A stretch of DNA of 36,688 nt from assembly GCA_039589315.1 (NCBI GenBank), contig JBDHHQ010000062.1, positions 1-36,688 of the forward strand, read 5' to 3'. Each line of letters opens with the position of its first letter. The stretch's first letter is position 1. Made by a program: the position numbers and the translations under genes. The notes below the pieces were generated by a model. The model did not search any database and was not told the DNA's origin. It was given only the letters and a program-made list of their open reading frames with translations. The stretch comes from Gemmatimonadota bacterium. Its GTDB lineage: Bacteria > Gemmatimonadota > Gemmatimonadetes > Longimicrobiales > Gaopeijiaceae. Positions 4,378 through 27,800 of the stretch are shown here, piece by piece.

Positions 4378-6117
4378 TCAGTCGATCCTCGAAAGGCCCA
4401 GCCCGACCCAGCGCGCAACAGCCTGAAAGCGCGGATCAGAGCGGATCGGATCGAACGTCGGTCCCCCGATCCCGAGCGTCACCGCGAACTGTCCCTCGGC
4501 GAAGGCCCTCTCGACAGCTCTTACCGCCTCTTCGTAGTCCCCCAAGTGGATGTACGTCGGCGCGATCGCGAAGGGGGGAAGGACAGCCTCCAGATCGAGT
4601 CCGGGTGGCGCCGGCTGTGGCTCGCCGGTCTCCGCGAAGGACCTCGCTCCGTCGGCCAGGGAAGCGATGAGGGCCGGGTCGTTGTCCGTCAGCTCCGCCC
4701 ATTTCACGAAGGCGTCACGCGCTTCGTCGAACTCTCCCAGCACAAGGGCGGTGTTGGCGAACACCATCGTCGTGGTGGGGAACTCGGGATTGAGCTCGAG
4801 GGCTCGCCGGTATTGACGGGCCGCCCCTTCGAGGTCTCCCGCCAGCGACAAGTTGTATCCTACATCCTGGTTGATGATGCTGGAGAGCGGATCGAGCTCG
4901 TAGGCCTTGCGGATCTCTGCCTGCCCTTCGTCGAACCGCCCGACACGGCTGAGCATGTTGGCGTACCAGTGATGCCCGGTCGCATACTCGGGGCTCAGCT
5001 CCGTCGCCCGACGAAACTCCTCCTCCGCGCCCTCCCAGTCGTATCGCATCTCCTTGATCAGGCCGAGGCTCGCGTGGACTCCGCCGAGGGACGGATCGAA
5101 TTGGAGAGCCTGCCGAGCATTGGCCTCACCCCGCTCGAGCATGGCCTCCGAATCACCCTTCAGGTACCACGGCTGGGCTGCGTAGGCCTCCGCCAGACCC
5201 GCGTAGGGCAGGGCGAAAGTCGAGTCGACCTCGATGGCGTCGCGGAAGTGCTCGATCGTCTCCGCCAGCGATTCGGGCGTGCGCCTACGCCATGCCGCCA
5301 AGCCCAGCAGATAGGATTGATAAGCTTCCAGGCTCTCAGTCGGGCGCCGCTCCATTCGGGTGCGGTCCCTCGGGGTGAGCTCGAGCTCGAGCGCGCCCGT
5401 GATCTGCTCGGCAAGGTCGATCTGAATGTCGAAGAGGCTGGCGACCGTGAGCTCGCTCTCGTAGGACTCCGCCCACACGGGCCCCTGAGTCTTCGCGTCG
5501 ATCAGTTGGACGGTAACCCGGACTCGGTCCTCCAGCATCCGCGCGCTTCCCTCGAGAACGAACGTGGTCCCCAGCTGCCTCCCGATCTCGGTGACCCCGG
5601 TCTGCCCATCGGCGAATCGCATGACGGACGTACGTGCGATGACGACGAGAGACGAGATCTTGGCGAGGCGGGTGATGATCTCTTCGTGAATCCCGTCCGC
5701 GAAGTAGGCGTCGGAAGGGTCGGGACTGATGTTCTTGAGTGGGAGCACCGCGATGGCGGGCCGATTTCGGTCGAGGGTGAACGGTGGGGCGCTCGACGGC
5801 GGCTCTCCCGCGTCCGACGGCCCGGGCCGAACGCTGAATACGCCCGCTCCCGCGATCACGGCGAGGCCTGCAAGTAGCACGACCTCCCACATCGTCGGGC
5901 GTTGCCGACCTTGCTCACCGTGGTACCACGCCAACACCAACGCGGCAACGAACCCACCGGCGAGCACGATCTGCAGCGCCCTTAGCACGAAGGGTGACCA
6001 CCCCCACGGCTCGGCAATGTCCGCGGCGACCTGAGCGACCACCCAGGCACTGGCCAAGTAGGCCAACGCCCACTGGATCAGCTTGCGCTCCTTCAGTCTG
6101 TGGAGGAACGACGCCAC
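4378..6117 (-). CDS. Membrane-anchored TolB-like N-terminal domain + TPR protein (adenylate-cyclase-associated type, no cyclase domain)
   Basis: 3-TM header (LKERKLIQWALAY...AWYHGE), IAVLPLKNIS...YFADGIHEEII, EGSAR...VRVTVQLIDA, TPR repeats, and C-terminal DPIRSDPRF. Confidence 0.9.
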   Translation of the reverse strand: MASFLHRLKERKLIQWALAYLASAWVVAQVAADIAEPWGWSPFVLRALQIVLAGGFVAALVLAWYHGEQGRQRPTMWEVVLLAGLAVIAGAGVFSVRPGPSDAGEPPSSAPPFTLDRNRPAIAVLPLKNISPDPSDAYFADGIHEEIITRLAKISSLVVIARTSVMRFADGQTGVTEIGRQLGTTFVLEGSARMLEDRVRVTVQLIDAKTQGPVWAESYESELTVASLFDIQIDLAEQITGALELELTPRDRTRMERRPTESLEAYQSYLLGLAAWRRRTPESLAETIEHFRDAIEVDSTFALPYAGLAEAYAAQPWYLKGDSEAMLERGEANARQALQFDPSLGGVHASLGLIKEMRYDWEGAEEEFRRATELSPEYATGHHWYANMLSRVGRFDEGQAEIRKAYELDPLSSIINQDVGYNLSLAGDLEGAARQYRRALELNPEFPTTTMVFANTALVLGEFDEARDAFVKWAELTDNDPALIASLADGARSFAETGEPQPAPPGLDLEAVLPPFAIAPTYIHLGDYEEAVRAVERAFAEGQFAVTLGIGGPTFDPIRSDPRFQAVARWVGLGLSRID

Positions 6118-9677: not shown

Positions 9678-12600
9678 CTACCTCACGATCAGCCGGACCG
9701 TAGCTGACTCGAATACGGACGGCGAAGTCGCCTGGACTCGGATGGTGTACGCGCCGGGAGGGGTTTGTGACCCGGGAGGTGGCTCGATCGGCCCTTCTTC
9801 GGCGCTCTCACCGCACGCCACCAGCACAGCGCCATGGAGCAGTAGCAAGGTGGCGGCGGCACGAAACGTCGGAGCACCTGCCTTCCCCGCAGCGCGCGAA
9901 CCGACTGCGCTCAACAACACAAGGAGAAGGGTCCCGGCAACGAGACTCAGCCGGTGAGGCCGGAGCCGGGTGAGGCGCCTGCGGACCGAGACGTGGGATG
10001 CCGTGGCCGGACCGCTCGTGGCAACCCTCAGAGTCGTGGTCACGGAGGTCGCGCTCAGCGTTACCACGTCGGGCGCGATGGAACAGGCAATCGACGCGTG
10101 CGGCGACAGGCAGTTCAGCGACACAGTCTCATCGACCTGGCCCAGCGGCGTCACGGTGAGGGCATACGTGGCCGTATCACCGGCAGACGCAGTGGCGGCA
10201 GCGGGCTCGGCGCCGAGGGAGTAGCTGACGATGCCGTGACCCTGCAAACTGACTGAATGCGGACCATTCGTGGCCCCGGTCTCGAAGGTCACGGTCCCGG
10301 TTCGGCGACCCCGTCCCGTGGGGAGGAAGCGGACCGCTACAACACATGTCGAGCCACCCGTGACGGAAGCGGCATCGCACGAGTCCGTCACGGTGAAGTC
10401 GTCCGGATGATCGCCCTCGACCATCACGCTATCCAAACGCAATGGGACCGAGCTGACATTTCTGAGCGCCAATTCCTGTGGGGCCGTGCCAACACCCACT
10501 GGAGACTCGCCGAAGTCGTGGGCAGTAGGCGCAATCGTGGCGGCTGAGCGTTCGGAGTTTTCGACAAACGCGACAAACGTGTTCCCTGCAATTCTTTGCT
10601 GAGTGCCTACGAGCGGAAGGTCGGGCGAGAAGGTGGTGCCGGACACGTACATGTTGCCGGCCCCATCCACTCCCACGCCATCCGCATGGTCGCTGCCGCT
10701 CCCTCCCAGGAACGAGGAATGAACGAGCGCACCACCCCCCGGAGAGAGCTGGGCAATGAAGGCATCCTCGCAATCGATGTGTTCGCTTCTTACGCACTCC
10801 GCTTGAAAGGGGTTTACCGTCGGGAAGTCGCGCGATGCCGTGCCACCAGCGACGTAGATATGCCCTTCAGGGCCCACTGCGATATCCAGACCCTCATCAC
10901 TGCCCAAGGAACCACCCAAGAACGTCGAGAATCGAAGCGAAGCGCCGTCCGACGTGAGCGCGGCAACGAAGGCATCGGTCGTTCCACGCAAGGTCCCGAA
11001 GATCGGATTGGATGTCGGAAAATCGGTCGATTGGGTGAACCCCGTCAGATACGTGTCTCCAGACTCTTCCACGGCGATTACGTTGGCCAAGTCGTTTCCG
11101 GCACCTCCCAGCAATGTGGAATAGACCACCGCGGACCCGTCGGTAGACAGTTTCGTCACGAACGCATCGCTCGGCCCTCCACCGAAACTCGTCTGAACGG
11201 CGCCGGACGTGGTAGGAAAGTCGGATGACTCGACCTGTCCCGTGACATACGCGAAGCCCGCTTCGTCCACCGCCAGCATGTTTCCATGGAAGCCGCGTCC
11301 GTCATCTTCGGACCCGCCTAAAAGGGTGGAGTACGCCAGCTCGGCTCCGTCGGCGCTCAGTTTCGTCACGAAGCGATCGCTCGCTCCGGCGAGAGTCGAC
11401 TGATAGGCACCTGCGCTGGTCGGGATATCAGACGATACGGTCGAGCCAGACACGTAAACTGCACCAGACGCGTCGATCCCCAACCCGAGGGCGTAGTCGT
11501 CGCCCATGCCGCCGAGGAGTGACGAGAACACGAGCGCCGCCCCGTCAGCGCTCAGCTTGGTCACGAAGGCGTCTGTCAGTCCGCCTCCGAACCCCTCCTG
11601 GAAAGCCCCCACCGTGGTAGGGAAGTCGTGAGAATAGGAGTCTCCGGTTACGTAGGCATTGCCGGTATCGTCGATTACGATACTCGTCCCTGGGTCGGCG
11701 TCGCTTCCGCCCAGGTAGGTCGAGTAGATCAGCATGCCGTCAGGACCGAACTTCGTCACGTACGCTGGAGAGAACCCAGGATTGGTCGTCTGGAACGCCC
11801 CGTGCGTAGTCGGAAAGAAGCCACCGCCAGCATTCCCCACGATGTAGACGTTGCCGTTCGGGTCCACCGCCATGTCGTTCGGCGTTCCCCCTCCGTTTCC
11901 GCCGACATAGCTGGAGAGGCTCAGAACCGGGTCGATGACCAACGGGCGCCCAACATCGTACGGACCGATCCGTAGACCCACCCGATCCTCCCCACGTAGC
12001 TCGTATCTGCCTTCCACCAGGGTCCGCTCACCTTCGATCTCCTGGTAGACGACCGGGGCGTATTGGACCAATTCACCGCGGGGCGTATGCAGCCTCAAAT
12101 CACCGCGATCTGAAATCCTCAGATCGGTGGCGCCAGCGAACCTCATCACGATCACACCGGGGTCGTGATCAGGGTCTACGATCAGGTCGTACTCGAGTTG
12201 CGGAGCGCCGTAGTACACGACGTCGACACCTGGATATACGGCCTCGTATTCGACCTGCGCGTAACTGACGACGTCAGTTCGCCATTTCGTTGGATCACGC
12301 CCGAGGAAGTAGTTCGTGCTGCCCGGAAGCTCCTCTAGACCCACCAACCGTGTCTCGAGATCACTGCCGGCGAAGCCCAAGTGAACCACCGCGGTTGTCG
12401 TTTCGCCCGGGACTTTTCGGTGCGGTTCCGCGTGAATCAGGCCCGCTGTCGCCGTGTTCGGGTGGCTCACGAGCAGCGTTGCACCGGTCTTCGTCAGCGC
12501 GACCGTCAACCCCCGAGCCCGTGCCACGAACCGCACGTCTCCGCCACCCTCAATGGCCTCGAATCTGAGAGGCTGGGCACCGTACTCCGGAGTCCAGGAG

Positions 12601-12770
12601 GGTTTCTGCGGAAGTAGGTTGGCGTGCGTGCGACCTGGCGCGAGCTGTTGCTCGTGCCGGTCTCGCCCGGGAGCGACCAGAAGCGCGATGGTGATGATGC
12701 CAGCCATGAGCGCAGCCGGCACCCAGCGCTTGGACTCGGAGATTCTAAGCCGCTGGAGAAGCTCGGACAT
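9678..12770 (-). CDS. SBBP beta-propeller repeat surface protein with N-terminal beta domain, ASH/choice-of-anchor-D-like Ig domain and C-terminal membrane anchor
   Basis: NYFLGRDPTKWRTDV...VYPGVDVVYYG...PLVIDP, followed by about 7 repeats of YSTxLGG.G.D....IAVD..G..YVTG.T.S.DFPT. Then HDFG...V.FLPT..G.RTG. AGGAGG precedes ATG 12770. Confidence 0.9.
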   Translation of the reverse strand: MSELLQRLRISESKRWVPAALMAGIITIALLVAPGRDRHEQQLAPGRTHANLLPQKPSWTPEYGAQPLRFEAIEGGGDVRFVARARGLTVALTKTGATLLVSHPNTATAGLIHAEPHRKVPGETTTAVVHLGFAGSDLETRLVGLEELPGSTNYFLGRDPTKWRTDVVSYAQVEYEAVYPGVDVVYYGAPQLEYDLIVDPDHDPGVIVMRFAGATDLRISDRGDLRLHTPRGELVQYAPVVYQEIEGERTLVEGRYELRGEDRVGLRIGPYDVGRPLVIDPVLSLSSYVGGNGGGTPNDMAVDPNGNVYIVGNAGGGFFPTTHGAFQTTNPGFSPAYVTKFGPDGMLIYSTYLGGSDADPGTSIVIDDTGNAYVTGDSYSHDFPTTVGAFQEGFGGGLTDAFVTKLSADGAALVFSSLLGGMGDDYALGLGIDASGAVYVSGSTVSSDIPTSAGAYQSTLAGASDRFVTKLSADGAELAYSTLLGGSEDDGRGFHGNMLAVDEAGFAYVTGQVESSDFPTTSGAVQTSFGGGPSDAFVTKLSTDGSAVVYSTLLGGAGNDLANVIAVEESGDTYLTGFTQSTDFPTSNPIFGTLRGTTDAFVAALTSDGASLRFSTFLGGSLGSDEGLDIAVGPEGHIYVAGGTASRDFPTVNPFQAECVRSEHIDCEDAFIAQLSPGGGALVHSSFLGGSGSDHADGVGVDGAGNMYVSGTTFSPDLPLVGTQQRIAGNTFVAFVENSERSAATIAPTAHDFGESPVGVGTAPQELALRNVSSVPLRLDSVMVEGDHPDDFTVTDSCDAASVTGGSTCVVAVRFLPTGRGRRTGTVTFETGATNGPHSVSLQGHGIVSYSLGAEPAAATASAGDTATYALTVTPLGQVDETVSLNCLSPHASIACSIAPDVVTLSATSVTTTLRVATSGPATASHVSVRRRLTRLRPHRLSLVAGTLLLVLLSAVGSRAAGKAGAPTFRAAATLLLLHGAVLVACGESAEEGPIEPPPGSQTPPGAYTIRVQATSPSVFESATVRLIVR

Positions 12771-12804
12771 CGAGCCTCCTGCAAGACGGACGGCTGATCT
12801 TGCC

Positions 12805-12834
12805 AAGATAGGCGGAGGGCTCCGTTCCGCCCAA
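12805..12834 (-). promoter_or_regulatory. Putative promoter TTGGGC-N18-TATCTT
   Basis: Lies directly upstream of the SBBP gene RBS and has the recurring geometry. Confidence 0.55.
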
Positions 12835-16935: not shown

Positions 16936-18963
16936 ATGGCGTCGTTCTTCGACCGCCTGAAAGAACGGAAGCTGTTCCAGTGGGCTCTGGCGTATGCTGC
17001 CGGGGCCTGGGTCCTCCTCGAGGCCACGGGCTTCGTTTCCGACCGTTTCGCATGGCCAGAGGTCATCGTCCGAGTACTGACGATACTGGCCGGGGTCGGC
17101 TTCTTCGTCACGCTGGTCCTTGCTTGGTACCACGGCGAGAAGGGCCGCCAGCGAGTGAGCGGTCCGGAATTGCTGATGGTCGCCGCGCTCCTGATCGTCG
17201 CAGGCGTCGCACTGACGACGTTGGAAGAGGGTAGCGCTCCCACCGAGCCTGCCCCGAACGGCACCGACACGGATGGCCGACCCAGGATCGCGGTGTTACC
17301 GCTCGACAACCTGAGCCCCGATCCCGACGATGCGTTCTTTGCCGGGGGGGTCCAGGAGGATCTGACGGCAAAGCTGAGTCGGATCTCGTCGGTGGCGGTG
17401 ATCTCGCGCTCCTCAGTGGAGCGTTACGCAGAGAATCGTCCACCGCTTCGTCAGATCGCGTCTGAACTCGGGGCAGACTACCTCGTGGAGGGGAGCGCCC
17501 GGGTGGCAGGTGACTCGGTGCGCATAACGGTCCAGTTGATCGAGGGGTCGACAGACCTGCACCTCTGGACCGAACACTTCGACGCGGCATACTCACCAGA
17601 CGCCTATTTCGGTGTCCAGGCGGAGATCGTGCAGCGAATCGCGTTTCAGCTACGTGCATCCATTTCGCCGACCGACGTCGAATGGCTCAGGGAGGTGCCG
17701 ACCCAGAATCTGGAAGCCCTCGAAGCCTACATGCGCGGGAACGAGGAGTACCTGCACGAGACCTTGCGACAGTCAACAAGCACGTGGGATCGAATCCCTT
17801 CGATCGGTTTCTACGAGAGGGCTCAGGAGCTCGATCCCGACTTCTCACTGAACCTCGCTCGGCTCGCACTGGCAGGTACGAGAACCTTCAATTACACGGA
17901 CTGGGCTCCTGAGCGGGTCGAAAGCCTCGCGAGAATGGCGCTCGCTCTGTCTCCCGACCTGCCCGAGGCCCGACTTGCGTTGGCTCGCTCCTTGTGGAGT
18001 GCGGGACGAGAGGAGGAAGCACGGTCTCAGCTTCAGCTTGCCCGGCAGACCGACCCGGACCATCCCGAAATCGCCCTGGAACTGACCAGCTACGAAGGCG
18101 TCTACAACGACCCGACCCTCTTCATTCAAACGCATGAGAGTCTGGAGCGCTCGCTTCCCGGTGACCCACGCCCCGCGAGAGCACTCCTGTGGGCGTACCA
18201 ACTGACACATGAGTACGACAAGGCCCTGGACGTTGCCGATCGGGTGGCGGCTCTATCGAACCCGCCACCAAACACGGTCGCTAGGAGTCGGGCCTTTATT
18301 GCGCTGGCAAGAGGGAACCGTCAGGGGTGGGCGAGGGCAGCATCTGCCATCCTCCGAGATAAGCCCGGGGCCTTCTACACCAACTCCCAAGACTCTCCGC
18401 ATCGGGTTCTGGAACGACTCCTCAGCCCTGAGGAGCGCCGGTTGTCGTTCGAGGCGGCCGTCCAAGATACTTCTGTAACCTCGTTCTTCGACGGGGAAGG
18501 AAAGGCTCGCCCGTTCTTCTTCATGAATGCCGCGATTCACGAGGCTGCCATGGGGCGGACCGAGTTGGCTCGCGCCCACTGGGACTCACTGCGTACCCGC
18601 CTCGAAGGCGATCCTCCTGCAAGTGAAGCTCCCCCTGGACGAGTCCGGCAATACCTGACCGACTTGTCTTTGGCGCATATGGGGCTCGGTGAGAGAGAGA
18701 AGGCGCTCCAGACTGCGGTGCGGATGGTCGAGCCACCCTTCGATCCGGATTGCCGAGAGGGTGACCGCCGACGGTGTCGCATCCTCGCCCGCGTCTATGC
18801 TCACTTTGGCGAGCACGATCTGGCCATCGACCTGCTGGAGGAGATATTGCCCATCCCCTCCTCGCTGACCGGGCACATCCTCGAAGTCGATCCGATCTGG
18901 AACCCCCTCCGCGACCACCCCCGCTTCCAGGCGCTGCTGGAGAAGTACGGAAGCGAGCCCTGA
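16936..18963 (+). CDS. Membrane-anchored TolB-like N-terminal domain + TPR protein
   Basis: MASFFDRLKERKLFQWALAY header, IAVLPLDNLS, EGSARV..VRITVQLI, TPRs and PLRDHPRFQALL. Confidence 0.9.
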   Translation: MASFFDRLKERKLFQWALAYAAGAWVLLEATGFVSDRFAWPEVIVRVLTILAGVGFFVTLVLAWYHGEKGRQRVSGPELLMVAALLIVAGVALTTLEEGSAPTEPAPNGTDTDGRPRIAVLPLDNLSPDPDDAFFAGGVQEDLTAKLSRISSVAVISRSSVERYAENRPPLRQIASELGADYLVEGSARVAGDSVRITVQLIEGSTDLHLWTEHFDAAYSPDAYFGVQAEIVQRIAFQLRASISPTDVEWLREVPTQNLEALEAYMRGNEEYLHETLRQSTSTWDRIPSIGFYERAQELDPDFSLNLARLALAGTRTFNYTDWAPERVESLARMALALSPDLPEARLALARSLWSAGREEEARSQLQLARQTDPDHPEIALELTSYEGVYNDPTLFIQTHESLERSLPGDPRPARALLWAYQLTHEYDKALDVADRVAALSNPPPNTVARSRAFIALARGNRQGWARAASAILRDKPGAFYTNSQDSPHRVLERLLSPEERRLSFEAAVQDTSVTSFFDGEGKARPFFFMNAAIHEAAMGRTELARAHWDSLRTRLEGDPPASEAPPGRVRQYLTDLSLAHMGLGEREKALQTAVRMVEPPFDPDCREGDRRRCRILARVYAHFGEHDLAIDLLEEILPIPSSLTGHILEVDPIWNPLRDHPRFQALLEKYGSEP

Positions 18964-18966
18964 GCC

Positions 18967-19128
18967 ATGTCCGTCCTGACCCGCCTCAAGGAGCGCAAGC
19001 TCGTTCAGTGGGCTTTGGTCTACGCTGCCGGAGCCTGGGTCCTCCTCGAAGCCACAGGCTTCGTTTCCGACCGTTTCGCGTGGCCAGAGGTCATCGTCCG
19101 CGCACTAGTTTGGGCGAGCCGGGCATGA
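18967..19128 (+). pseudogene. Truncated copy of the TPR-protein membrane header (53 aa)
   Basis: MSVLTRLKERKLVQWALVYAAGAWVLLEATGFVSDRFAWPEVIVR, then divergence and a stop. A 77-nt stretch differs from the 16936 gene at only 4 synonymous positions. Confidence 0.85.
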
Positions 19129-19199
19129 CACATCTCCACCTTTTCCCGACAGACAGCGCAGGCCGATCCCGCTAGGCTTGACCTGCACACCATTGGTTT

Positions 19200-19276
19200 C
19201 CAGCCCCGCCGGGCGTGAGGGGAGCCGATGGCCCGCCCGGTGGGTCCCTCCTCATCGGCAGGAGGATGATGCCATG
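19200..19276 (+). promoter_or_regulatory. Conserved structured 5' leader, copy 1 (includes RBS and ATG)
   Basis: Near-identical to the reverse complement of 27506-27588. It contains complementary segments CCCGCCGGG/CCCGGTGGG, GCCGATG/CATCGGC and CCTCCT/AGGAGG. Confidence 0.7.
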
Positions 19277-19582
19277 AAAAGGTCGCTGCTTGTGTCCGGG
19301 GTCTTCGTTGGCGGCTTCGTAGCCTCCCGGATTCTTTCACCGAAGCAGCCTGAACCGAGAAGTCGCCTTGCTGAAAGAATGACGGAGCGGTTCAGGTTGC
19401 GCATGGAGCGGATGCTGGCGTCGTTGCCGGAGGACTCCCCCCCGCGACTCGTGGTGTCCACGCTACCCCGATTGGCGGAACAGAATGAGCAGATCCTGGC
19501 CCTCTTGCGCGAGCAGAACACCCTGATGCGGGAGCTAGGCGCAAAACGGGAGGCAGACTGGGCTGAATCGGTGAGCGTCTGA
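19274..19582 (+). CDS. Hypothetical protein with N-terminal membrane anchor and coiled coil
   Basis: GGAGG RBS, hydrophobic N-terminus and C-terminal EQNEQILALLREQNTLMREL. Confidence 0.75.
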   Translation: MKRSLLVSGVFVGGFVASRILSPKQPEPRSRLAERMTERFRLRMERMLASLPEDSPPRLVVSTLPRLAEQNEQILALLREQNTLMRELGAKREADWAESVSV

Positions 19583-19648
19583 GCCTCCACCCGGTTGTCA
19601 TGGGCGCCGGCCGTTCGCCCGGCGCGGGTGAGCGGATGACCCTTATGC

Positions 19649-19678
19649 TTGATGAGGCACACCGTCAATCGGCATCTT
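19649..19678 (+). promoter_or_regulatory. Putative promoter TTGATG-N18-CATCTT
   Basis: Upstream of the header remnant at 19729 and the DUF6624 gene, with the recurring geometry. Confidence 0.5.
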
Positions 19679-19728
19679 CAGTCTACGGTCCGCCAGCGAG
19701 ATTCGCCGTGACCGCCGGAGGCGGCCTC

Positions 19729-19861
19729 TTGAACCGCCTAACACAACTCATTCGCGGGATCCGCCGTCGCGGTCTGTGGCAGGTGTTGGGGATCTACGTC
19801 GTCGGCGCGTGGGTTCCAGGCCGTGGACAAGCTTTCGACGGTCCTGCAGCTGCCCAGCTAG
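19729..19861 (+). pseudogene. Frameshifted remnant of the TPR-protein membrane header
   Basis: GGAGG, then TTG-NRLTQLIRGIRRRGLWQVLGIYVVGAWV. It continues in another frame as QAVDKLSTVLQLPS-TAG, where the family usually has LPxW. Confidence 0.75.
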
Positions 19862-19901
19862 CCACTTGGCGTTACGTAACATCGGCGTTGAGCTGAGAAG
19901 A

Positions 19902-20522
19902 ATGCGAAGAGTTCAACGGGTTCTAGCGTTAGGTCTGGTGGCATGGGCCTGCGGGGACGGCGAAAGGGAACCGCCCTGGGCACAGATCCATGAAGATCTC
20001 CTTGGGATGGAGGAGCGGGATCAAAAGGCGCGGCAGGGACTCACGGGAGCGTCGCTGAGAGACACGGTGCTCATGCGCCAAATGCTCGCCGTCGATTCCG
20101 CCCACACTGAGCGGTTGCGGGAGATCGTCGCGACGTATGGCTGGCCAGGAATCAGCGATGTTGGGGAGGATGGCGCGCATGCGGCATGGCTTCTTCTCCA
20201 ACACAGTTCCGACCACGAGTTCCAGCGCAGCACGTTGCCGCTGATGGAAGAAGCGGCACAGCATGGTGAGGCCTCGCGACGCTCGCTGGCTCTCCTCGTC
20301 GACCGGGTCCTGATCCACGAAAACAAGCCACAGCGATACGGAACCCAATTCAGGTTCGTTGAAGGTGGGATTGAGTTCCACCCGATCGAGGATCCGGAGT
20401 CAGTGGACGAGCGGCGTGCGAGTGTGGGGCTTCCGCCGTTGGAGGAGTACCGACGGATGTCCGAGCAGTTCTACGATGTCGGGGGCCGCGACACGCTGGA
20501 CGGGTCGGGCGGCCCACGGTAG
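19902..20522 (+). CDS. DUF6624-type lipoprotein
   Basis: Lipobox AWAC, plus DQKAR, YGWPGISDVG..GAHAAWLLLQHS, LVDR, QRYGTQ and VDERRASVGLPPLEEY. Confidence 0.85.
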   Translation: MRRVQRVLALGLVAWACGDGEREPPWAQIHEDLLGMEERDQKARQGLTGASLRDTVLMRQMLAVDSAHTERLREIVATYGWPGISDVGEDGAHAAWLLLQHSSDHEFQRSTLPLMEEAAQHGEASRRSLALLVDRVLIHENKPQRYGTQFRFVEGGIEFHPIEDPESVDERRASVGLPPLEEYRRMSEQFYDVGGRDTLDGSGGPR

Positions 20523-20665
20523 CTGGCGCCTCGTCGCGGGTCGCTCCTCGAAGCGATGAGTCTTGATGGCGTGCTCCCGTCACACCTACGGTGTTCACGT
20601 CGCTGCGCGGTCAGCACGTAGGTCGCGCAGCAGAACCGCAGAACCGCTAGAACGCGTCGAAGGAG

Positions 20666-21391
20666 TTGCACATCTCGAAGACAACAACGATCCCGTGGCT
20701 GCGTGTCCTAGCGGAGGGCGCCGTGATCGTCCTTAGCATCTTGCTGGCGTTTGGGATCGACGCGTGGTGGGAGGGGAGGGCAGAGCTCGGCCAGACCCGT
20801 GAGCACCTCGCTGCGGTGCGTCTCGAGTTGTTCGAGAACGCCCGCCTTCTCGACGAACAAGCAGTGTCTTGCGAGCGAAGTCGCGCCGCGAATGAGGGGC
20901 TCTTTTCGCTGATGGGTCCCAACCCCGAGCCGGTGCCGCCCGACTCGCTCGTGAGCCTGGTGGCGGAGGCGTTATTCCCAGGCGTCGGTAATCGTCTCAG
21001 CACGACCGCTATTGACGCCATGATCGCCGAGGGACAGTTCGCCGCGATCCAGTCTGCCGACCTTCGGCTCGGCCTGGGCGATTGGCTGTCGTCCGAGGTC
21101 AACCAACGGAGCCAGCAGAGAGACAACACGAGAGCGCAGCTCAGAGAGACGCAGGCCTATGTTGAGACGATCATGCCCTACGGACTCGTAAGAGCCCGCT
21201 GGAGCTCGCTATCGGACCTGCCGGAATCTCGCTTTCGGTTGGACGTGGATCGCGTGTTGGGCGATGCGACCCTTGAGGGTTCGTTGTCCCAGCTGGCCCT
21301 CTGGAGACAGTCGATCTGCAACTCGGACTCCCGACGCCAGGAAAAGCTGAAGACGCTTCTTGTTCTTCTGGACGCTGAACTGGCGGAATGA
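20666..21391 (+). CDS. Hypothetical single-TM protein (IPWxR..EG.VIV.SILLAF.IDAWW family, DUF6090-like)
   Basis: N-terminal TM motif followed by a long helical region. The start is uncertain (TTG 20666 or ATC 20672). Confidence 0.8.
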   Translation: MHISKTTTIPWLRVLAEGAVIVLSILLAFGIDAWWEGRAELGQTREHLAAVRLELFENARLLDEQAVSCERSRAANEGLFSLMGPNPEPVPPDSLVSLVAEALFPGVGNRLSTTAIDAMIAEGQFAAIQSADLRLGLGDWLSSEVNQRSQQRDNTRAQLRETQAYVETIMPYGLVRARWSSLSDLPESRFRLDVDRVLGDATLEGSLSQLALWRQSICNSDSRRQEKLKTLLVLLDAELAE

Positions 21392-21655
21392 TCCGCCGAG
21401 CGGTCGCCCGCCGCGCTTCAGTGCCCGCAATCCAACACGTTGTCCAAGTCGGACGGCGTTGTCCCGAGTGTCCGTCTGGAAGTTCGCGGAGCGGACTGAC
21501 CGGAGCGTGATCTACGGTAATCGTCGTCTGGGCCGGAGCGTGTGATTCGATCGCAATGGGGGCTATGTCGACACGCCTGGGTGGTGACGGGATCCCGGGA
21601 CCGGGACCGTGCTCTTGCTAGTGCGGGTCATGGATCCGTCCACTGGAGGTGTGAG

Positions 21656-23095
21656 ATGAGACGCTGGACAGCCCTCTTCCTCGTGGCTGGGTTGGCCGTT
21701 GCCGGCGCGCCGCTTCAAGGACAGGAGACCTACGACCTCGTCATTACCGGGGGCCGGGTCATGGATCCGGAGACGGGCCGCGACGAGGTCGCCAACGTCG
21801 GCGTCCGTGACGGGCGCATCGGGGTCATCACCACCGAGCAGCTCCGCGGCGAGCGCGTCATCGACGCCACCGGGCACATCGTGGCGCCGGGCTTCATCGA
21901 CGTGCTGTCGGGGATTGCCGCCCGCCGGTTGGCCCACGAGGACAAGGTGGCCGACGGCGTGACCACCACCTTCGGGATGCACGGCGGCCCGCTGGACGTC
22001 TCGGGATACGCGGCGGAGCAGAGGGCCATCGGCCCGGCGGTGAACTTTGCCAAGACCGTGGATCACCGGGCCGTGCGCCGAGCGGCCGGCGCTACCGACG
22101 CCTACGCCTCGGCCCTCCCGGAGCAGATCCCCGTCATGAAGAACCTGGCCCGCCAGGCCATCCGGGCCGGGGCCGTGGGCATCGGCTTCGGCCTGAACTA
22201 CGCGCCGGGGACCTCGTACGAGGAGGTCTACGCCATGTTCGAGGTGGCGGCGGAGGAGAACGTCCCCGTGCACCTCCACGCCCGGTACAAGGGGAACGTC
22301 TTCCCCCAGACCATGAGCCTGGCCGTCATGGAGGTCGTCGCCATGGCAGCCGCCACCGGCGCCCAGGCGCAGATCGCCCACCTCATCTCCTCCACCGTGG
22401 GGTCGGCGCCTCTGTCCATCGCGCTGCTGGAGGGCGCCCAGGCCCACGGCGTGGACGTGGGCTTCGACTTCCATGTGTGGACGCGTAACCAGACCACACT
22501 GCAGTCGGCCCTGTACGACGAGGGGTGGGAGGAGCGCTTCGGCGGCGCCACCTATTCCGACCTGTTTGTGGCTCGCACCCAGGAGCAGCTCAACGAAGCG
22601 CGCTTCTTCGAGCTCCGGGCTCAGGAGGAGGCCGTGGCGGTGCAGACGGAGTTCATCCCCGAGGAGGAGATCGTCATGGGGATCCGGGCGCCGCACGGCA
22701 TCATCAGCTCCGACGGCGGCGGCCTGGTGAACGGCACCGGGCACCCCCGTAGCGTGGGAACCTTCGCCCGGTTCCTGGGCCGCTACGTCCGGGACCAGGG
22801 GGTGCTGGACTGGTTGGAGGGGCTGAAGCGCATCACGCTCCTGCCGGCACAGCGCCTGGAGCGCTCGGTGCCGCGAATGACCCGGAAAGGCCGTCTGCAG
22901 GTGGGCATGGACGCGGACATCACCGTTTTCCAGCCCGCCACGGTGCAGGAGCGCGCAACCTACGCGAATCCCGACCGGCGCAGCGCCGGCATCCCCTTTG
23001 TCATCGTCAACGGCGTGGTGACGGTGGACCACGGAGTGGTGCAGAGCGATGCCGCGGCGGGAGAGTGGATGCGGCACCCGGGGTGGGTAAAGTAG
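21656..23095 (+). CDS. Secreted amidohydrolase, D-aminoacylase/D-glutamate deacylase-like
   Basis: GGAGG RBS and a signal peptide, plus YDLVITGGRVMDPE, APGFID, SSDGG, HPRSVGTFARFLG and KGRLQVGMDADITVF. Confidence 0.9.
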   Translation: MRRWTALFLVAGLAVAGAPLQGQETYDLVITGGRVMDPETGRDEVANVGVRDGRIGVITTEQLRGERVIDATGHIVAPGFIDVLSGIAARRLAHEDKVADGVTTTFGMHGGPLDVSGYAAEQRAIGPAVNFAKTVDHRAVRRAAGATDAYASALPEQIPVMKNLARQAIRAGAVGIGFGLNYAPGTSYEEVYAMFEVAAEENVPVHLHARYKGNVFPQTMSLAVMEVVAMAAATGAQAQIAHLISSTVGSAPLSIALLEGAQAHGVDVGFDFHVWTRNQTTLQSALYDEGWEERFGGATYSDLFVARTQEQLNEARFFELRAQEEAVAVQTEFIPEEEIVMGIRAPHGIISSDGGGLVNGTGHPRSVGTFARFLGRYVRDQGVLDWLEGLKRITLLPAQRLERSVPRMTRKGRLQVGMDADITVFQPATVQERATYANPDRRSAGIPFVIVNGVVTVDHGVVQSDAAAGEWMRHPGWVK

Positions 23096-23497
23096 GTTCA
23101 GCCGCCTCGGCCGCTTCGATCACGGTGACGTAGATGAGGATCGGATAGCCGACATCAACCTGTCGGCGGGGCGCGACGGAAGCTGCTATCCACCCCTCCG
23201 GGAGGTCGATCTCGATGGTCTTCTTCTCCGGGCGGTTGGGCACCCCGATCATCCTTCTATCCCACATTGTAACGACCTCCACAACGTGAAATGCGACCGA
23301 CATCGGTCTGCGGATGCCCCCCTCCACAGGCTGAACGGACCTGCGATTCCGCTTCGCGGCTCAGTCTGTCCACCGCGTCAGCAGCGATTCGGCGATCACC
23401 CGGCCGGCAAACTCGACTTGTGATCACAGTTGTCCAGCGTGTGGTGGGGACGGCATTACCCGCGAGGAGTTGGCAGAGCCGGAGACCCTGCTGCGTC

Positions 23498-26056
23498 CTA
23501 CCTAGGCACCCGCTCCTCGAGCAGCGTGGTAAGGTTCTGCACGTATACCATGGGCCCCGGTTGGGCTTCGCTCAGGTACCGCCACACGAGGAGTCGACCG
23601 TCGGGGGCCACGTCGAAGGGCGCGTCGAGGAAGGCCAGGATCGAGAAGCCGTCCGCGGGGAAGAGGATCTGCGATGCGCCGAACGCGAAGGTCGGCGACA
23701 GCTGGACCGAGACCGCCACCATGCCCTGGTCGCTGGCGTAGAAGAGTTCGCGCCCGTCCCGCGACCAAACCGGACTGGACCCACCCTCCGACGACACCTT
23801 CCACTTCCCGTCGCCGCTGTTGGGGAAGGGCACGACGTACACCTCGTGCCGACCGGTCTCGTTCGAGGAGTACGCGAGCCAACGGCCGTCCGGGGAAAGG
23901 TTGTGCGCCAGCTCCTGCGCCGGCGTGGCTACGATCTCCGTGGGTACCGAGTCCCGTCCGGGACGCACGGCCCGGATGTCCCCCGAGCCCGTCAGATTGA
24001 CATTGGTCCGGTACACGAGCCACTCACGGTCTGGCGACCAGTGCGGACTGATGATCTCGATCTCGTCCGTGTGCGTGAGAACCAGCTGGCCGGTGCCGTC
24101 GGCGCTGCGCGTATGGAGAGCCGTGTCGCCGTCCACGAGCACCGAGTCGCCCTCCGGCGTCCACGACGTCCGGCCTCCCTCGCCTGCGAACGTGAGCTGG
24201 ACCGACGGGCTCCCGTCGAAGCGCCGCACCCACAGGTTGCCGTCCTGGGCGAACGCCACCGCCGAGCCATCGGGGGAAATGGAGGGGTAGCCCATCCCGT
24301 GGTTCCAGTCGGGGCCGAGAGCATCGACCGCGCCGTCTCGGTCCACCCAGACCCGCTCGCCCTCCCTGGACGGCGACGGGCGCTGGAAGAGCAGCGCGCC
24401 GCTGGCCGATGCCGCGAACTCGGTGTAGGAGCTTCCGCGCACCCAAACGTCGTCCCACAGCGCCACAGCCTGGCCCATCTCCAGCGTCTCGAGATTGAAG
24501 GGCGCGGCCCACAGGGTGCCGTCGAAGGTCGTGTAGACGATGTGCCCCGAGGTGACGTACCGCGCCCCGGTTCCGTCCCCGATCTCGCGCAGCTCGCCCC
24601 CCTCGGGACCCACGACCGCAATTCGGCTGAAGCGGGCCGTGCTCCTTCGAACCGCCATCAGAAGGCCGCTGTTTCCGGGAAGGGCCTGCGGCGCGAGGAG
24701 GTCGGCGTCTGCCTGAGGTGTCCAGGCTTCGGCATCCCCTCCCGCCGGAGGCAGCCTGAAGATCGTCTCGTTCCGCACGAAGAAGAGGGCGCCGTCGTCT
24801 CCCCAAGTCGGATCCAGTCCTTCCCCGACGGTCACGCCGGGCCCACCCTCCAGGGGGACGGTCCTCACCATGGGCGGAACGACGAACGCCAGGGTGCGTC
24901 CGCCTGCGGAAACCACCGGGCTGCCCCCACCCTCGGTTCCGGCGATGGGCTCCGACGCCATGTCGAACAGGGACCGTCTCCAGAGAACCGGCTTTCCGTC
25001 TCCGTCCTGGGCCTGATAGACGACCTGACTGCCATCCGGTGTCAGCGCAGAGGCTACACCCGACTCCCACCACATCGCGGGCTGCGGCTCCCTGCCGCTC
25101 GGTTGCAGGAGCATCCAGCCGATGGTGACGGCGAGCACGACGGTAGTGGCGGCCAGCGCGGCGGTTGTGCCGCGGCTGCCCACGACAGCGGCGCTCGCGG
25201 CGGCTTCCTCTCCGTGCCGGAAGCCCGGGTTGGCCAGCGCGGCCGCCAGGCCGGCGGCCGTGGAGAACCGGTCCGCCGGGACCTTCTCGAGTGCCTTGCG
25301 GATCGACGCGTCCACATGGGCCGGCACCGCGGAGCGCCTCTCCGTGGTGGAGACCGGCTTACCACTGATGATCTGACCCAGCACCGCCTGGGCCGTCGAG
25401 CCCAGGTAGGGCGGATCGCCGACGAGCATCTCGTACAGGACGCAGCCCAGCGAGTAGATGTCGCTCCGCGCGCCGACCTGCTGATCGCCCGTCGCCTGCT
25501 CCGGGCTCATGTAGTACGGCGTGCCGACGCTGAGGCCCGTTTCGGTGAGCCGCGCACCGCCACCCGCGCCGACCGCGAGGGCGATCCCGAAGTCGCCCAC
25601 CACCGGCTGGCCGCCCTGGAAGAGGATGTTGGCCGGCTTGATGTCCCGGTGCACCACGCCGTGCTCGTGGGCGAAGTTCAGCGCGTTGGCCACTGCGGTG
25701 GCGATCCTCACCGCCTCATCCACCGGGAGCTGCTTCTCCGTCTCGAGTCGTTCCCTCAGCGTCTCCCCTTCCACGTACGGCATCACGTAATAGAGGAAGG
25801 AGTCCGCCTCTCCCGAGTCGTACAGCGGCAGGATGTTCGGGTGCTGCAGGTTCGCCGTGGTCTCGATCTCGGCCAGGAAGCGTTCGGCGCCGACCACCGC
25901 CGCGAGCTCTGGCTTGAGGACCTTGAGCGCGACGCTGCGGTTGTGCTTCAGGTCCTTGGCCAGGTAGACCGTGGCCATGCCGCCCTCGCCGAGCTCACGT
26001 TCGATGCTGTAGCGGCCCTCGAGAGCGTCCTTCAGCCGGGTGACGGGGTCGGGCAC
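23498..26056 (-). CDS. Ser/Thr protein kinase (Hanks type) - TM - PD40/TolB-like beta-propeller
   Basis: LGEGGMATVY, VALKVL, HRDIKPANIL, DFG, GTPYYMSPEQ, a TM segment, and repeated SPDG/WSPD blades. GAGGA precedes GTG 26056. Confidence 0.93.
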   Translation of the reverse strand: MPDPVTRLKDALEGRYSIERELGEGGMATVYLAKDLKHNRSVALKVLKPELAAVVGAERFLAEIETTANLQHPNILPLYDSGEADSFLYYVMPYVEGETLRERLETEKQLPVDEAVRIATAVANALNFAHEHGVVHRDIKPANILFQGGQPVVGDFGIALAVGAGGGARLTETGLSVGTPYYMSPEQATGDQQVGARSDIYSLGCVLYEMLVGDPPYLGSTAQAVLGQIISGKPVSTTERRSAVPAHVDASIRKALEKVPADRFSTAAGLAAALANPGFRHGEEAAASAAVVGSRGTTAALAATTVVLAVTIGWMLLQPSGREPQPAMWWESGVASALTPDGSQVVYQAQDGDGKPVLWRRSLFDMASEPIAGTEGGGSPVVSAGGRTLAFVVPPMVRTVPLEGGPGVTVGEGLDPTWGDDGALFFVRNETIFRLPPAGGDAEAWTPQADADLLAPQALPGNSGLLMAVRRSTARFSRIAVVGPEGGELREIGDGTGARYVTSGHIVYTTFDGTLWAAPFNLETLEMGQAVALWDDVWVRGSSYTEFAASASGALLFQRPSPSREGERVWVDRDGAVDALGPDWNHGMGYPSISPDGSAVAFAQDGNLWVRRFDGSPSVQLTFAGEGGRTSWTPEGDSVLVDGDTALHTRSADGTGQLVLTHTDEIEIISPHWSPDREWLVYRTNVNLTGSGDIRAVRPGRDSVPTEIVATPAQELAHNLSPDGRWLAYSSNETGRHEVYVVPFPNSGDGKWKVSSEGGSSPVWSRDGRELFYASDQGMVAVSVQLSPTFAFGASQILFPADGFSILAFLDAPFDVAPDGRLLVWRYLSEAQPGPMVYVQNLTTLLEERVPR

Positions 26057-26093
26057 GAGCTTGTCCTCGATGGGGCATCTCTGACGCGACAAA

Positions 26094-26123
26094 AAGATCC
26101 TGCCCGCCGCCCTAGTGGCGCAA
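26094..26123 (-). promoter_or_regulatory. Putative promoter TTGCGC-N18-GATCTT
   Basis: Conserved with the upstream region of the second kinase. Confidence 0.5.
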
Positions 26124-26322
26124 GAAGACAGAGCGCGTGGGTCTACCCCTGTTGGAACTCGATGACTGAGCTGAGACGCTGACACTCGAAGATGCAGATC
26201 TCGATCTCAGGAATCCACGCGATGATCGTATCAGGCCCCACCAACTCGACCAGGTACACGAATGGGCCTTGGGGGCTCCCCTAGATTCGCTGCCACTGAG
26301 TAACCCGTCTGAAATCCCCTGC

Positions 26323-26958
26323 CTACCAGCGCAGCGGTACCGAGACGCCGAGTGTGAATCGGCCAGTGGGACGAACCGCTACCGCGGGCTTGGCGGGTGG
26401 CTCCACGGTTGCCCATTTTTCAGTCTTGATCAGCGAGCCAATGCCTGCACCGACGCCAAGGCCGAGAAGACCAGCCAGAACCTCTTCGGTCGGCCCCGTA
26501 TTCACCCTGATACACAAGGCACACAGTGGACTGTCGCATGTGGGAGGCGGAGGAGGACAGTCAGGTTCGGAGGTCGATGCCAGCGCGACACCGACTCCTA
26601 CGCCGAACCCGACCAAGGCACCCCAACCTGCATTGCCCGATCCGCCCTGACTCACCTCGACCGATTCGACCTCCGACAGCTCCCATGAGAGTTCCGTAGT
26701 GTCGGTCGCGGCGGCTGCCCAGGACTTCTCGCATTGAGCCCAATGCTCGTTCAGGCAGCGAAACGCCCGTCCGTCATCCGCTGATTGTGTCCGAATGCCG
26801 ATACGCGCCGAATCCAGCGCTACGATTGTACCGACCATCCTTCGGCTGGCCTCCGTAACGCGCACTCTGTCGCCCAGCTCCAGCAGGGGCTCCTCCTGCT
26901 GAGCCACCAACGGTGCCGAGAGCAGCAGTAGTGCCGCCGTGATCGATCCTGCAGTCAT
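26323..26958 (-). CDS. Secreted or membrane hypothetical protein with glycine-zipper-like hydrophobic segments
   Basis: AAGGAGG RBS, signal peptide, GDRVRV domain, GALVGFGVGVG and GLLGLGVGAGIG, and a C-terminal beta-strand-like TLGVSVPLRW. Confidence 0.8.
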   Translation of the reverse strand: MTAGSITAALLLLSAPLVAQQEEPLLELGDRVRVTEASRRMVGTIVALDSARIGIRTQSADDGRAFRCLNEHWAQCEKSWAAAATDTTELSWELSEVESVEVSQGGSGNAGWGALVGFGVGVGVALASTSEPDCPPPPPTCDSPLCALCIRVNTGPTEEVLAGLLGLGVGAGIGSLIKTEKWATVEPPAKPAVAVRPTGRFTLGVSVPLRW

Positions 26959-27079
26959 GACGCACCTCCTTTCCGAGACGCGGCCTCACGACCACCCCTC
27001 GGTGCCACCTGTTCCGGCAGTCCTCGTCGTCAAGGTCACGAAGCCCTCGCAAGCGGAGCGGCCTGGCTGCAGCCGCTCT

Positions 27080-27508
27080 TCATGGCGGCGGAATCCGGCT
27101 CTCCATCCAGCACTTGGACATTCCATTACCGCTTGGCGCGCGAGTCCACTTGGACGCGTATCCCACATGGTCAATGCCATTGATCCACCAGTGGCAGTAC
27201 CAGCCACTCAGGACCTGAGCCTTCTCGATTGGCGGAAGACCCTCGAAGAAGCACATGGCGATGGCCTTCCCACCGGGTTTGTGTATGAACGTGACGTCGT
27301 TCGTTCTGAAGGCACCAAAATGACAATTGCCGCTGTTCGGTTGCCCCTTGCCTCGGTTGTAGACGTAGGTACCACCGCCTTGCGCACCGAGCGAGGTCAG
27401 TTCACCAAGAGCGGGATCTACGCTGAGGGCTGGTGGTGTGGGAGAGTCACCGTCGCCGCATCCATGGAGCAGCAGTGAGCAGAATCCGATCAGGAAGATC
27501 GATCTCAT
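27080..27508 (-). CDS. Hypothetical lipoprotein with four further Cys
   Basis: GGAGG RBS, lipobox LHGC, and a small beta-rich domain with 4 Cys. Confidence 0.75.
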   Translation of the reverse strand: MRSIFLIGFCSLLLHGCGDGDSPTPPALSVDPALGELTSLGAQGGGTYVYNRGKGQPNSGNCHFGAFRTNDVTFIHKPGGKAIAMCFFEGLPPIEKAQVLSGWYCHWWINGIDHVGYASKWTRAPSGNGMSKCWMESRIPPP

Positions 27509-27588
27509 CACATCATCCTCCTGCCGACGAGCAGGAACCCACCGGGGGGCCATCGGCTTTGCTCCTGCCCGGCGGGGGAAGGGCTGGC
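27506..27588 (-). promoter_or_regulatory. Conserved structured 5' leader, copy 2
   Basis: The reverse complement CCCCGCCGGGCAGGAGCAAAGCCGATGGCCCCCCGGTGGGTTCCTGCTCGTCGGCAGGAGGATGATGTGATG aligns with 19204-19276. Confidence 0.7.
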
Positions 27589-27625
27589 GTACCCAAGAAG
27601 CTGCCGCAGTCGAGTCAAGCCGGAG

Positions 27626-27685
27626 TCAAGTGAGCAGGGCACCCAGAACGAGCTCGCACTCCTGGATCCGATTCAGAAGGGACAT
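27626..27685 (-). pseudogene. Degenerate remnant of the TPR-protein header (19 aa)
   Basis: MSLLNRIQECELVLGALLT*. Its DNA GAG TGC GAG CTC GTT CTG compares with GAG CGC AAG CTC GTT CAG in the 18967 copy. Confidence 0.55.
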
Positions 27686-27800
27686 CGATCGTACAGGCGG
27701 CCTGCTGTATAGGCGTGGGGTTGCCTCTGCTGTCCCCGTCGCGTGTGGAAGGAGGCCGCGGCCTGAGCTGGCAGGACGCGATCGCCTGGCTGCAGCGAGC

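Follow-up and report, generated by a model that had tools for sequence, protein, structure and literature searches.

Small H-type pseudoknots acting on translation are known from the guanidine-III (ykkC-III), SAM-II, SAM/SAH and preQ1 riboswitches, in which a hairpin loop pairs at the ribosome-binding site. Regulatory DNA can also be exchanged in its own right, as in horizontal regulatory transfer, where a bacterial gene gains a non-homologous upstream region. The genes described for guanidine riboswitches encode SMR exporters and transporters as well as urea carboxylases (PMC7266159, in part). In T4-type phages, PeSL cassettes made of a promoter, a stem-loop, a Shine-Dalgarno (SD) sequence and a start codon lie in variable regions in front of unrelated genes, and shuffling by recombination has been proposed for them (PMC2839356, in part). 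The present analysis concerns a structured leader that occurs twice in a stretch of 36,688 nucleotides (nt) from a Gemmatimonadota bacterium (assembly GCA_039589315.1, contig JBDHHQ010000062.1), the whole of which is referred to as the window. An earlier reading of this DNA, the original prediction, had proposed a cis-regulatory RNA shared by two unrelated genes and acting either as a translational switch or as a portable expression module. The strongest feature of the leader, missed at that time, is a strict link to genes for exported proteins. Confidence is much higher in a real, selected family linked to envelope genes than in any particular mechanism. As to mechanism, about even chances are given to a pseudoknot that keeps the SD usable and sets the translation of exported proteins, and that is carried in a portable cassette.

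A leader family in front of exported-protein genes

Both leader copies of the window were recovered at their predicted positions, with 85% identity across 74 nt (BLAST in the 6.67-Mb genome, E 4e-16) and in each case AGGAGG, 8 nt and an ATG. Their downstream proteins, of 102 and 142 amino acids (aa), share no BLASTP similarity, in agreement with the original prediction. Neither matched a Pfam or NCBIfam family, and the ESM Atlas returned only unnamed clusters for the 102-aa protein. The core has a fixed polarity and order, observed directly: the predicted hairpin P1 with the loop GCCGAUG, a linker of 21-100 nt, the sequence CAUCGGC complementary to the loop, and the SD, with the start codon 14-19 nt past CAUCGGC. 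Loop and CAUCGGC would form the two strands of a second helix, P2 (Table 1).

The family extends well beyond two copies. Model searches brought the total to 33 complete copies, each oriented toward a start codon; they come from 14 genomes of Gemmatimonadota and from 2 contigs of metagenomes. BLAST, profile and covariance model agreed on six complete cores in this genome, of which four lie outside the window (two on contig C38, one each on C206 and C118), and there is one weak match on C169. BLAST with the window copy found strong matches in 3 of 314 family genomes, its own included. The third genome (G643) was not counted as independent, since its contig C95 (L073) and C118 of G000 are 99.7-100% identical over 2.3 kb; as the two belong to different genera, this points to either mis-binning or very recent transfer. 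Scans of the collections added two copies from a congener, a metagenome orthologue of copy 1 and, from a second Gemmatimonadota lineage, three copies ahead of a lipoprotein with two CxxCH motifs, and L221 and L257 were gained through looser patterns. A model made from five second-lineage copies only recovered all nine copies of the window's lineage (E 5e-10 to 9e-6) and none of seven decoy loci, showing that the two sets belong together. With a joint model (R3), 29 new matches were inspected and 15 accepted, 13 of them complete and 2 with P1 only; the other 14 were discarded on visual inspection, as the motif, the partner or the SD was missing or the match lay inside a gene. In a held-out test on 15 further genomes, six of eight matches were true members, all six ahead of proteins with a hydrophobic N-terminus, and L457 (motif and partner, neither SD nor start) and L462 were rejected.

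The distribution is patchy across the samples searched. A metagenome scan led to 2 accepted matches out of 35 and a genome scan to 4 out of 14, two of which are duplicates. The first model (R1) gave none that was accepted in 150 genomes of the order (11 of them gave 22-28-bit matches, one being a cold-shock gene leader), and of 73 pattern matches outside this genome among 350 genomes of the phylum, none of the 50 inspected with their flanks was accepted. The joint model gave six weak matches in 38 genomes of the class, none accepted. Rejected candidates include L172, at the end of a likely coding region, and L325, with a 7/7 partner and no SD. In viral collections 0 of 3 matches were accepted, and among the matches listed for the P1 pattern 0 of 80 had partner, SD and start. 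The order, phylum and class sets are samples, and long-linker forms escape the earlier searches.

The 22 assessable downstream families have no mature domain in common, and all 22 begin with an export or membrane signal, read by eye as a lipobox in 17, a standard signal peptide in 2 and a membrane segment in 3. Outside these families, one gene is broken and one is cut by the contig end. A fixed hydrophobicity rule was passed by 19 of 19 families and by three added later, the backgrounds for this rule being 309/1001 genome-wide (31%) and 21/59 on the island contigs (36%). Genes with the same promoter class (described below) and no RNA core passed in 4 of 12 cases (Fisher p 6e-5). Variable islands are enriched in membrane and secreted proteins, with about 31% in archaea (PMC4158269, in part); this is at the background level and does not explain 100%.

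The predicted pseudoknot core and the ribosome-binding site

Helices P1 and P2 can be read from the sequence of both window copies, including the U-G wobble in copy 2, and the interleaved topology of the original prediction was borne out. Across 27 copies, 186 of the 189 cells of P2 can pair, with 7 G-U changes, 3 mismatches and a single double change, from U-A to C-G in L286; in the six held-out copies, read by eye, 40 of 42 cells are paired. Three matches found on P1 alone nonetheless had a partner (7/7, 7/7 and 6/7) 65-100 nt downstream, just before the SD, a place where a 7/7 partner occurs at 23 of 2319 SD-ATG starts of this genome, six true copies included (about 1% by chance). Long linkers fold on themselves in modelling, and an extra hairpin between P1 and the P2 partner is common to the long-linker members L291, L302, L303, L307, L309, L455, L456 and L458-L460. 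For P1, 213 of 260 cells are paired and there are 28 double changes (reached by 0 and 1 of 3000 shuffles, respectively), and on a model-fitted alignment 0 of 500 shuffles scored as high; a first register of this helix was replaced by one with a 2-nt bulge. When orthologues of the 102-aa gene were compared in three pairs, identity was 90-93% in the P1 region and 57-68% at fourfold sites, a figure inflated by the 7-nt search motif. Among homologues, covariation was found for P1 between the two lineages and not within either, and for P2 it amounts to the one double change.

The original prediction also had each copy able to bury its SD. Complementarity between anti-SD and SD is present in both window copies, but it is not a conserved feature, because the stem is broken in most new members. 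Within the window's lineage the SD-burying stem is 88.7% paired without any double change. In L221, a second-lineage member, it has two compensatory changes, and the 3-base-pair (bp) stem around CAUCGGC is mismatched in most new members. The proposed covariation between the variable 8-nt segment (N8) and the anti-SD holds only between the two window copies: of nine close copies, only four can pair at the column pair on which the case depends, and 369 of 500 shuffles match the covariation score of the helix. An RNA thermometer, likewise suggested before, was not supported, since modelled SD accessibility from 15 to 55 °C went up in some and down in others of 12 copies. The conserved leader of a small heat-shock protein gene (L203/L206) has a strong hairpin over its SD and may be thermometer-like. 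Folded as single sequences, the leader copies showed no unusual stability (z -0.1 to -2.0). With the 3' strand of P2 directly adjoining the SD, a full P2 and a full SD hairpin would by geometry be mutually exclusive, and imposing P2 raised the mean modelled SD accessibility from 0.37 to 0.52.

According to the preferred reading, the P1 loop would pair with CAUCGGC and thereby stop this sequence and the pyrimidines preceding it from folding over the SD. The folded state would be the translation-competent one, and the folded leader may also shield the message from decay. The leader would spread within a cassette of promoter, leader and ribosome-binding site, sometimes together with a signal-peptide start, presumably through recombination between copies in variable genome islands and without an enzyme of its own.

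Several results weigh against this reading. Covariation within lineages is not significant (118 of 500 shuffles for 9 close copies, 347 of 3000 for 20 others), and the P1 signal stems from the between-lineage split and the hand-set register. P2 is too invariant for the covariation test (543 of 3000 shuffles), and since most of the patterns and models used for searching included it, part of its conservation reflects the way the copies were found. The orthologous loci L296 and L310 retain P1 and its loop and have no P2 partner. P1 and P2 together contain 26 A-C mismatches versus 24 G-U cells; in P1 the A-C type is no rarer than G-U, so that P1 marks no strand. The gain in accessibility upon imposing P2, a crude constraint, was seen in only 16 of 27 copies, and with the competing SD stem so poorly conserved there may be nothing to switch against. 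Finally, members resemble one another in their signal peptides somewhat more than the other lipoproteins predicted in this genome do (0 of 300 resamplings), hence the families are not fully independent, and part of the export bias may come from co-inheritance of leader and signal peptide. The signal peptides of this genome's own four members are not more alike (170 of 1000).

A less probable explanation is a responsive switch, in which an aptamer that binds a small molecule or an ion, or a site for an RNA-binding protein or small RNA, would make the synthesis of envelope proteins depend on a signal, for instance envelope stress. The loop is nearly invariant although pairing alone would permit change, L296 and L310 keep P1 and loop even without a partner, and the compact H-type layout beside the SD resembles small translational riboswitches. 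In the window's lineage, moreover, the anti-SD hairpin rivals P2 in strength (-9.1 versus -10.6 kcal/mol). However, the downstream genes have a localisation and not a pathway in common, no residues of loop or linker are conserved beyond the paired parts, and the competing SD stem is not conserved. Nor does the leader resemble an Rfam family at E up to 10, where only weak microRNA, small nucleolar RNA, long non-coding RNA or viral matches far below threshold and no bacterial family were obtained, and where the guanidine-III model is absent. At the gathering threshold, Rfam 15 gave no match in the window and a single tRNA among 16 member loci, in agreement with the initial impression that the leader lies outside the known riboswitch classes. 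A hepatitis delta virus-like ribozyme, domain V of a group II intron and a CsrA site were considered and dropped because required elements are missing. No description of the motif was found in the literature searched, including the main texts of PMC11109978 and PMC8632094, whose supplements may hold motifs not yet in Rfam.

Export, portability and the spread of the leader

A role in export itself, in which the leader would bring the mRNA or the ribosome at initiation to the membrane, or would pace initiation to the capacity of the secretion and lipoprotein pathways, is unlikely. It would suit the envelope targeting of all 22 assessable families, 17 by lipobox, and the lack of export bias in the linked promoter class alone. 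On the other hand, co-inheritance of leader and signal peptide may account for part of the bias without any export function, and most lipoprotein genes of this genome, in which 80 lipoproteins are predicted, have no leader. Homologues of two downstream genes, the 102-aa and a cytochrome-like gene, lack it in other lineages (5 of 5 inspected; 9 of 9 plus this genome's own), which indicates that the leader moves between genes and led to rejection of a leader tied to one gene family. A broader proposal is put forward tentatively, that of a Gemmatimonadota 'export leader': a mobile pseudoknot cassette that would recruit genes to the envelope proteome and, via a factor or ligand, link their translation either to targeting to the membrane or to a signal from the envelope.

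The portable expression module that the original prediction had named as its alternative fits the data, as promoter, structure and SD are found together before unrelated genes and similarity ends at the ATG. The start-codon boundary is sharp: between copies with unrelated genes, similarity stops 2-8 nt into the open reading frame (ORF). In a separate sediment DNA run, of which a small share was examined and which gave contigs from relatives only, contigs span 19135-19277, and four of them continue into unlike sequence at 19277. Since many copies carry a conserved promoter-like motif, the whole looks like a portable expression cassette. The putative promoter class combines an unusual extended -35 motif, a 17-nt spacer and a YAnnnT -10 box. 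Of 27 places in the genome that match the upstream motif, 12 have TAnnnT at exactly +17 (background 0.00145). The exact pattern occurs at 11 sites here and at 6 in the congener; of 199 other genomes of the family, 5 have one site each, and the reversed control gave none. A weight matrix found 22 sites in this genome and 1 in its reversed sequence. Some of these sites precede genes that by sequence inspection encode catalase and small heat-shock protein. Three RpoD/SigA-type paralogues and one FliA-like protein are present in this genome, and the class may be the regulon of one of the three paralogues.

Five of the six cores share about 65 further upstream bases. Promoter and core swap independently, copy 2 (where the promoter-like block is wholly missing) and L004 having no promoter and C121 having the block alone. 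The GGCTTGAC motif that had been counted as part of the element overlaps the -10 box of copy 1 and reads GGCTGATT, GGCTTCAA or GGCTAAGG elsewhere, so it was not retained. Degenerate orthologous leaders ahead of a lipoprotein gene (G000 C51:4426-4459, L205; G001 C271:18633-18666, L202) were missed by the models; they keep the promoter and a 5-bp P2 core, one via G-U, with a different hairpin. The second lineage has a promoter variant ending in TTGCR, and an orthologue of one RpoD/SigA-type paralogue lies about 1 kb upstream of member L289. At L257, L286 and L302 the element and a Ser/Thr kinase gene stand back to back, and in L286 and L302 the kinase gene is preceded by one for an ECF sigma factor.

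A folded single-stranded DNA site for recombination or insertion, comparable to an integron attC or a repetitive extragenic palindromic (REP) hairpin and used by an enzyme encoded elsewhere to capture genes, is very unlikely. The sharp boundary at the start codon, the several copies per genome in variable islands and the tolerance of P1 for mismatches on either strand would agree with such a site. Yet no transposase, integrase or reverse transcriptase was found in 82 of the 92 ORFs within about 1.5 kb of 26 loci, distant enzymes not having been searched. At five copies there was no consistent terminal inverted repeat or target duplication, the longest being 5-8 nt and different each time. The original prediction had allowed for the end of an insertion sequence or a miniature inverted-repeat transposable element (MITE), and these same results speak against it. 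Furthermore, the 5' boundary varies between copies, the seven single changes under which P2 still pairs all give G-U on the strand of the mRNA, orthologous loci hold the leader in place, and no match was found in the plasmids or phages searched. Recombination between copies in islands, of the kind proposed for the phage PeSL cassettes, would be the simplest route of spreading. Neutral remnants of a duplicated upstream region without selected structure are the least probable explanation and already largely refuted, because, although some copies have decayed or stand before a broken gene (C206, L205, L245) and within-lineage covariation is not significant, both lineages retain the core whereas linker and flanks vary freely, and the P1 region exceeds fourfold-site identity in the three orthologue pairs, with the inflation mentioned above.

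The window is a variable island with abundant Ser/Thr kinases, TPR proteins and genes without known family. Short remnants resembling the 5' end of a large TPR-containing gene family (as at 16936) lie at 18968-19106, 19730-19789, 6041-6112 and 27632-27690, one of them directly upstream of each leader copy; 4 of 32 genome-wide matches to the N-terminus of this family are short. A 1042-aa protein at 9678-12806 contains beta-propeller (SBBP) repeats with a period of 195-210 nt and a DUF7948 domain. A second conserved element of about 60 nt lies about 60 nt upstream of the core at seven second-lineage loci and once occurs alone; it has no Rfam match, shows no double changes in 8 sequences and was not found in this genome.

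Table 1. Coordinates of the leader copies in the window and of related elements at other loci
Feature	Position	Strand	Remarks
Copy 1, predicted promoter	19144..19178	+	TCCCGACAGACA (extended -35 region), 17-nt spacer, -10 box TAGGCT at 19173-19178
Copy 1, 5' leader segment	19188..19203	+	Conserved, common to promoter-bearing copies of its own lineage (alignments)
Copy 1, hairpin P1	19205..19244	+	Arms 19205-19220 and 19231-19244, 2-nt bulge in 5' arm
Copy 1, loop motif GCCGATG	19224..19230	+	5' strand of P2, nearly invariant across members
Copy 1, anti-SD CCTCCT	19247..19252	+	Optional, without family-wide conservation
Copy 1, CATCGGC	19253..19259	+	3' strand of P2
Copy 1, SD AGGAGG	19260..19265	+	Sequence
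102-aa protein	19274..19582	+	Start codon at 19274; hydrophobic N-terminal segment
Copy 2, hairpin P1	27538..27576	-	Arms 27576-27561 and 27550-27538, loop motif GCCGATG at 27557-27551
Copy 2, CGTCGGC	27523..27529	-	3' strand of P2, U-G wobble
Copy 2, SD AGGAGG	27517..27522	-	
142-aa predicted lipoprotein	27080..27508	-	Start codon at 27508; lipobox; without known family
Other promoter-class sites	G000 C18:37504-37538, C44:28350-28384, C51 (four), C58 (three)		Also in G001, G733, G734
Second element of about 60 nt	L221:1383-1457, L303:1646-1720, L301:1402-1475, L307:1397-1470, L294:1598-1672, L296:858-931, L310 (two)		

Comparison with known systems

The leader defines a structured RNA family that Rfam does not list, from a phylum in which little is known of gene regulation, and its regulon is defined by the destination of the proteins and not by a pathway. 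If the structure is functional, the link between an RNA element and protein export could be put to the test here, as could a reusable cassette by which surface genes, when newly acquired, receive promoter, leader and ribosome-binding site in one step.

As in horizontal regulatory transfer, regulatory parts are exchanged, with promoter and RNA core swapping independently, but here one structured module serves at least 22 gene families. Like MITEs, REP elements and integron attC sites, the leader is short, multi-copy, non-coding and hairpin-forming; unlike them, it has no terminal inverted repeats, target duplication or linked recombinase, and it keeps a strict orientation and spacing to the start codon. 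With the small H-type pseudoknot riboswitches it shares a hairpin loop, here predicted, that pairs with a segment at the ribosome-binding site, and a fixed place before the start codon, whereas its SD lies outside P2, its linker measures 21-100 nt and it has no Rfam match. In contrast to guanidine-III, whose genes follow a metabolic theme as far as PMC7266159 describes them, the leader precedes lipoprotein and other envelope genes, which have export signals in common and no metabolic theme. Like the PeSL cassettes, in the features that the relevant part of PMC2839356 gives for these, it is a repeated unit in variable regions, of promoter, structure and SD that ends at the start codon before unrelated genes. 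The PeSL stem-loops are terminators of variable position, while no terminator-type U-tract follows P1 in the member sequences, and the leader is a conserved, chromosomal, predicted pseudoknot confined to exported-protein genes. In its working the leader resembles both the small pseudoknot leaders and the PeSL cassettes, and stands beside them as a member of neither group.

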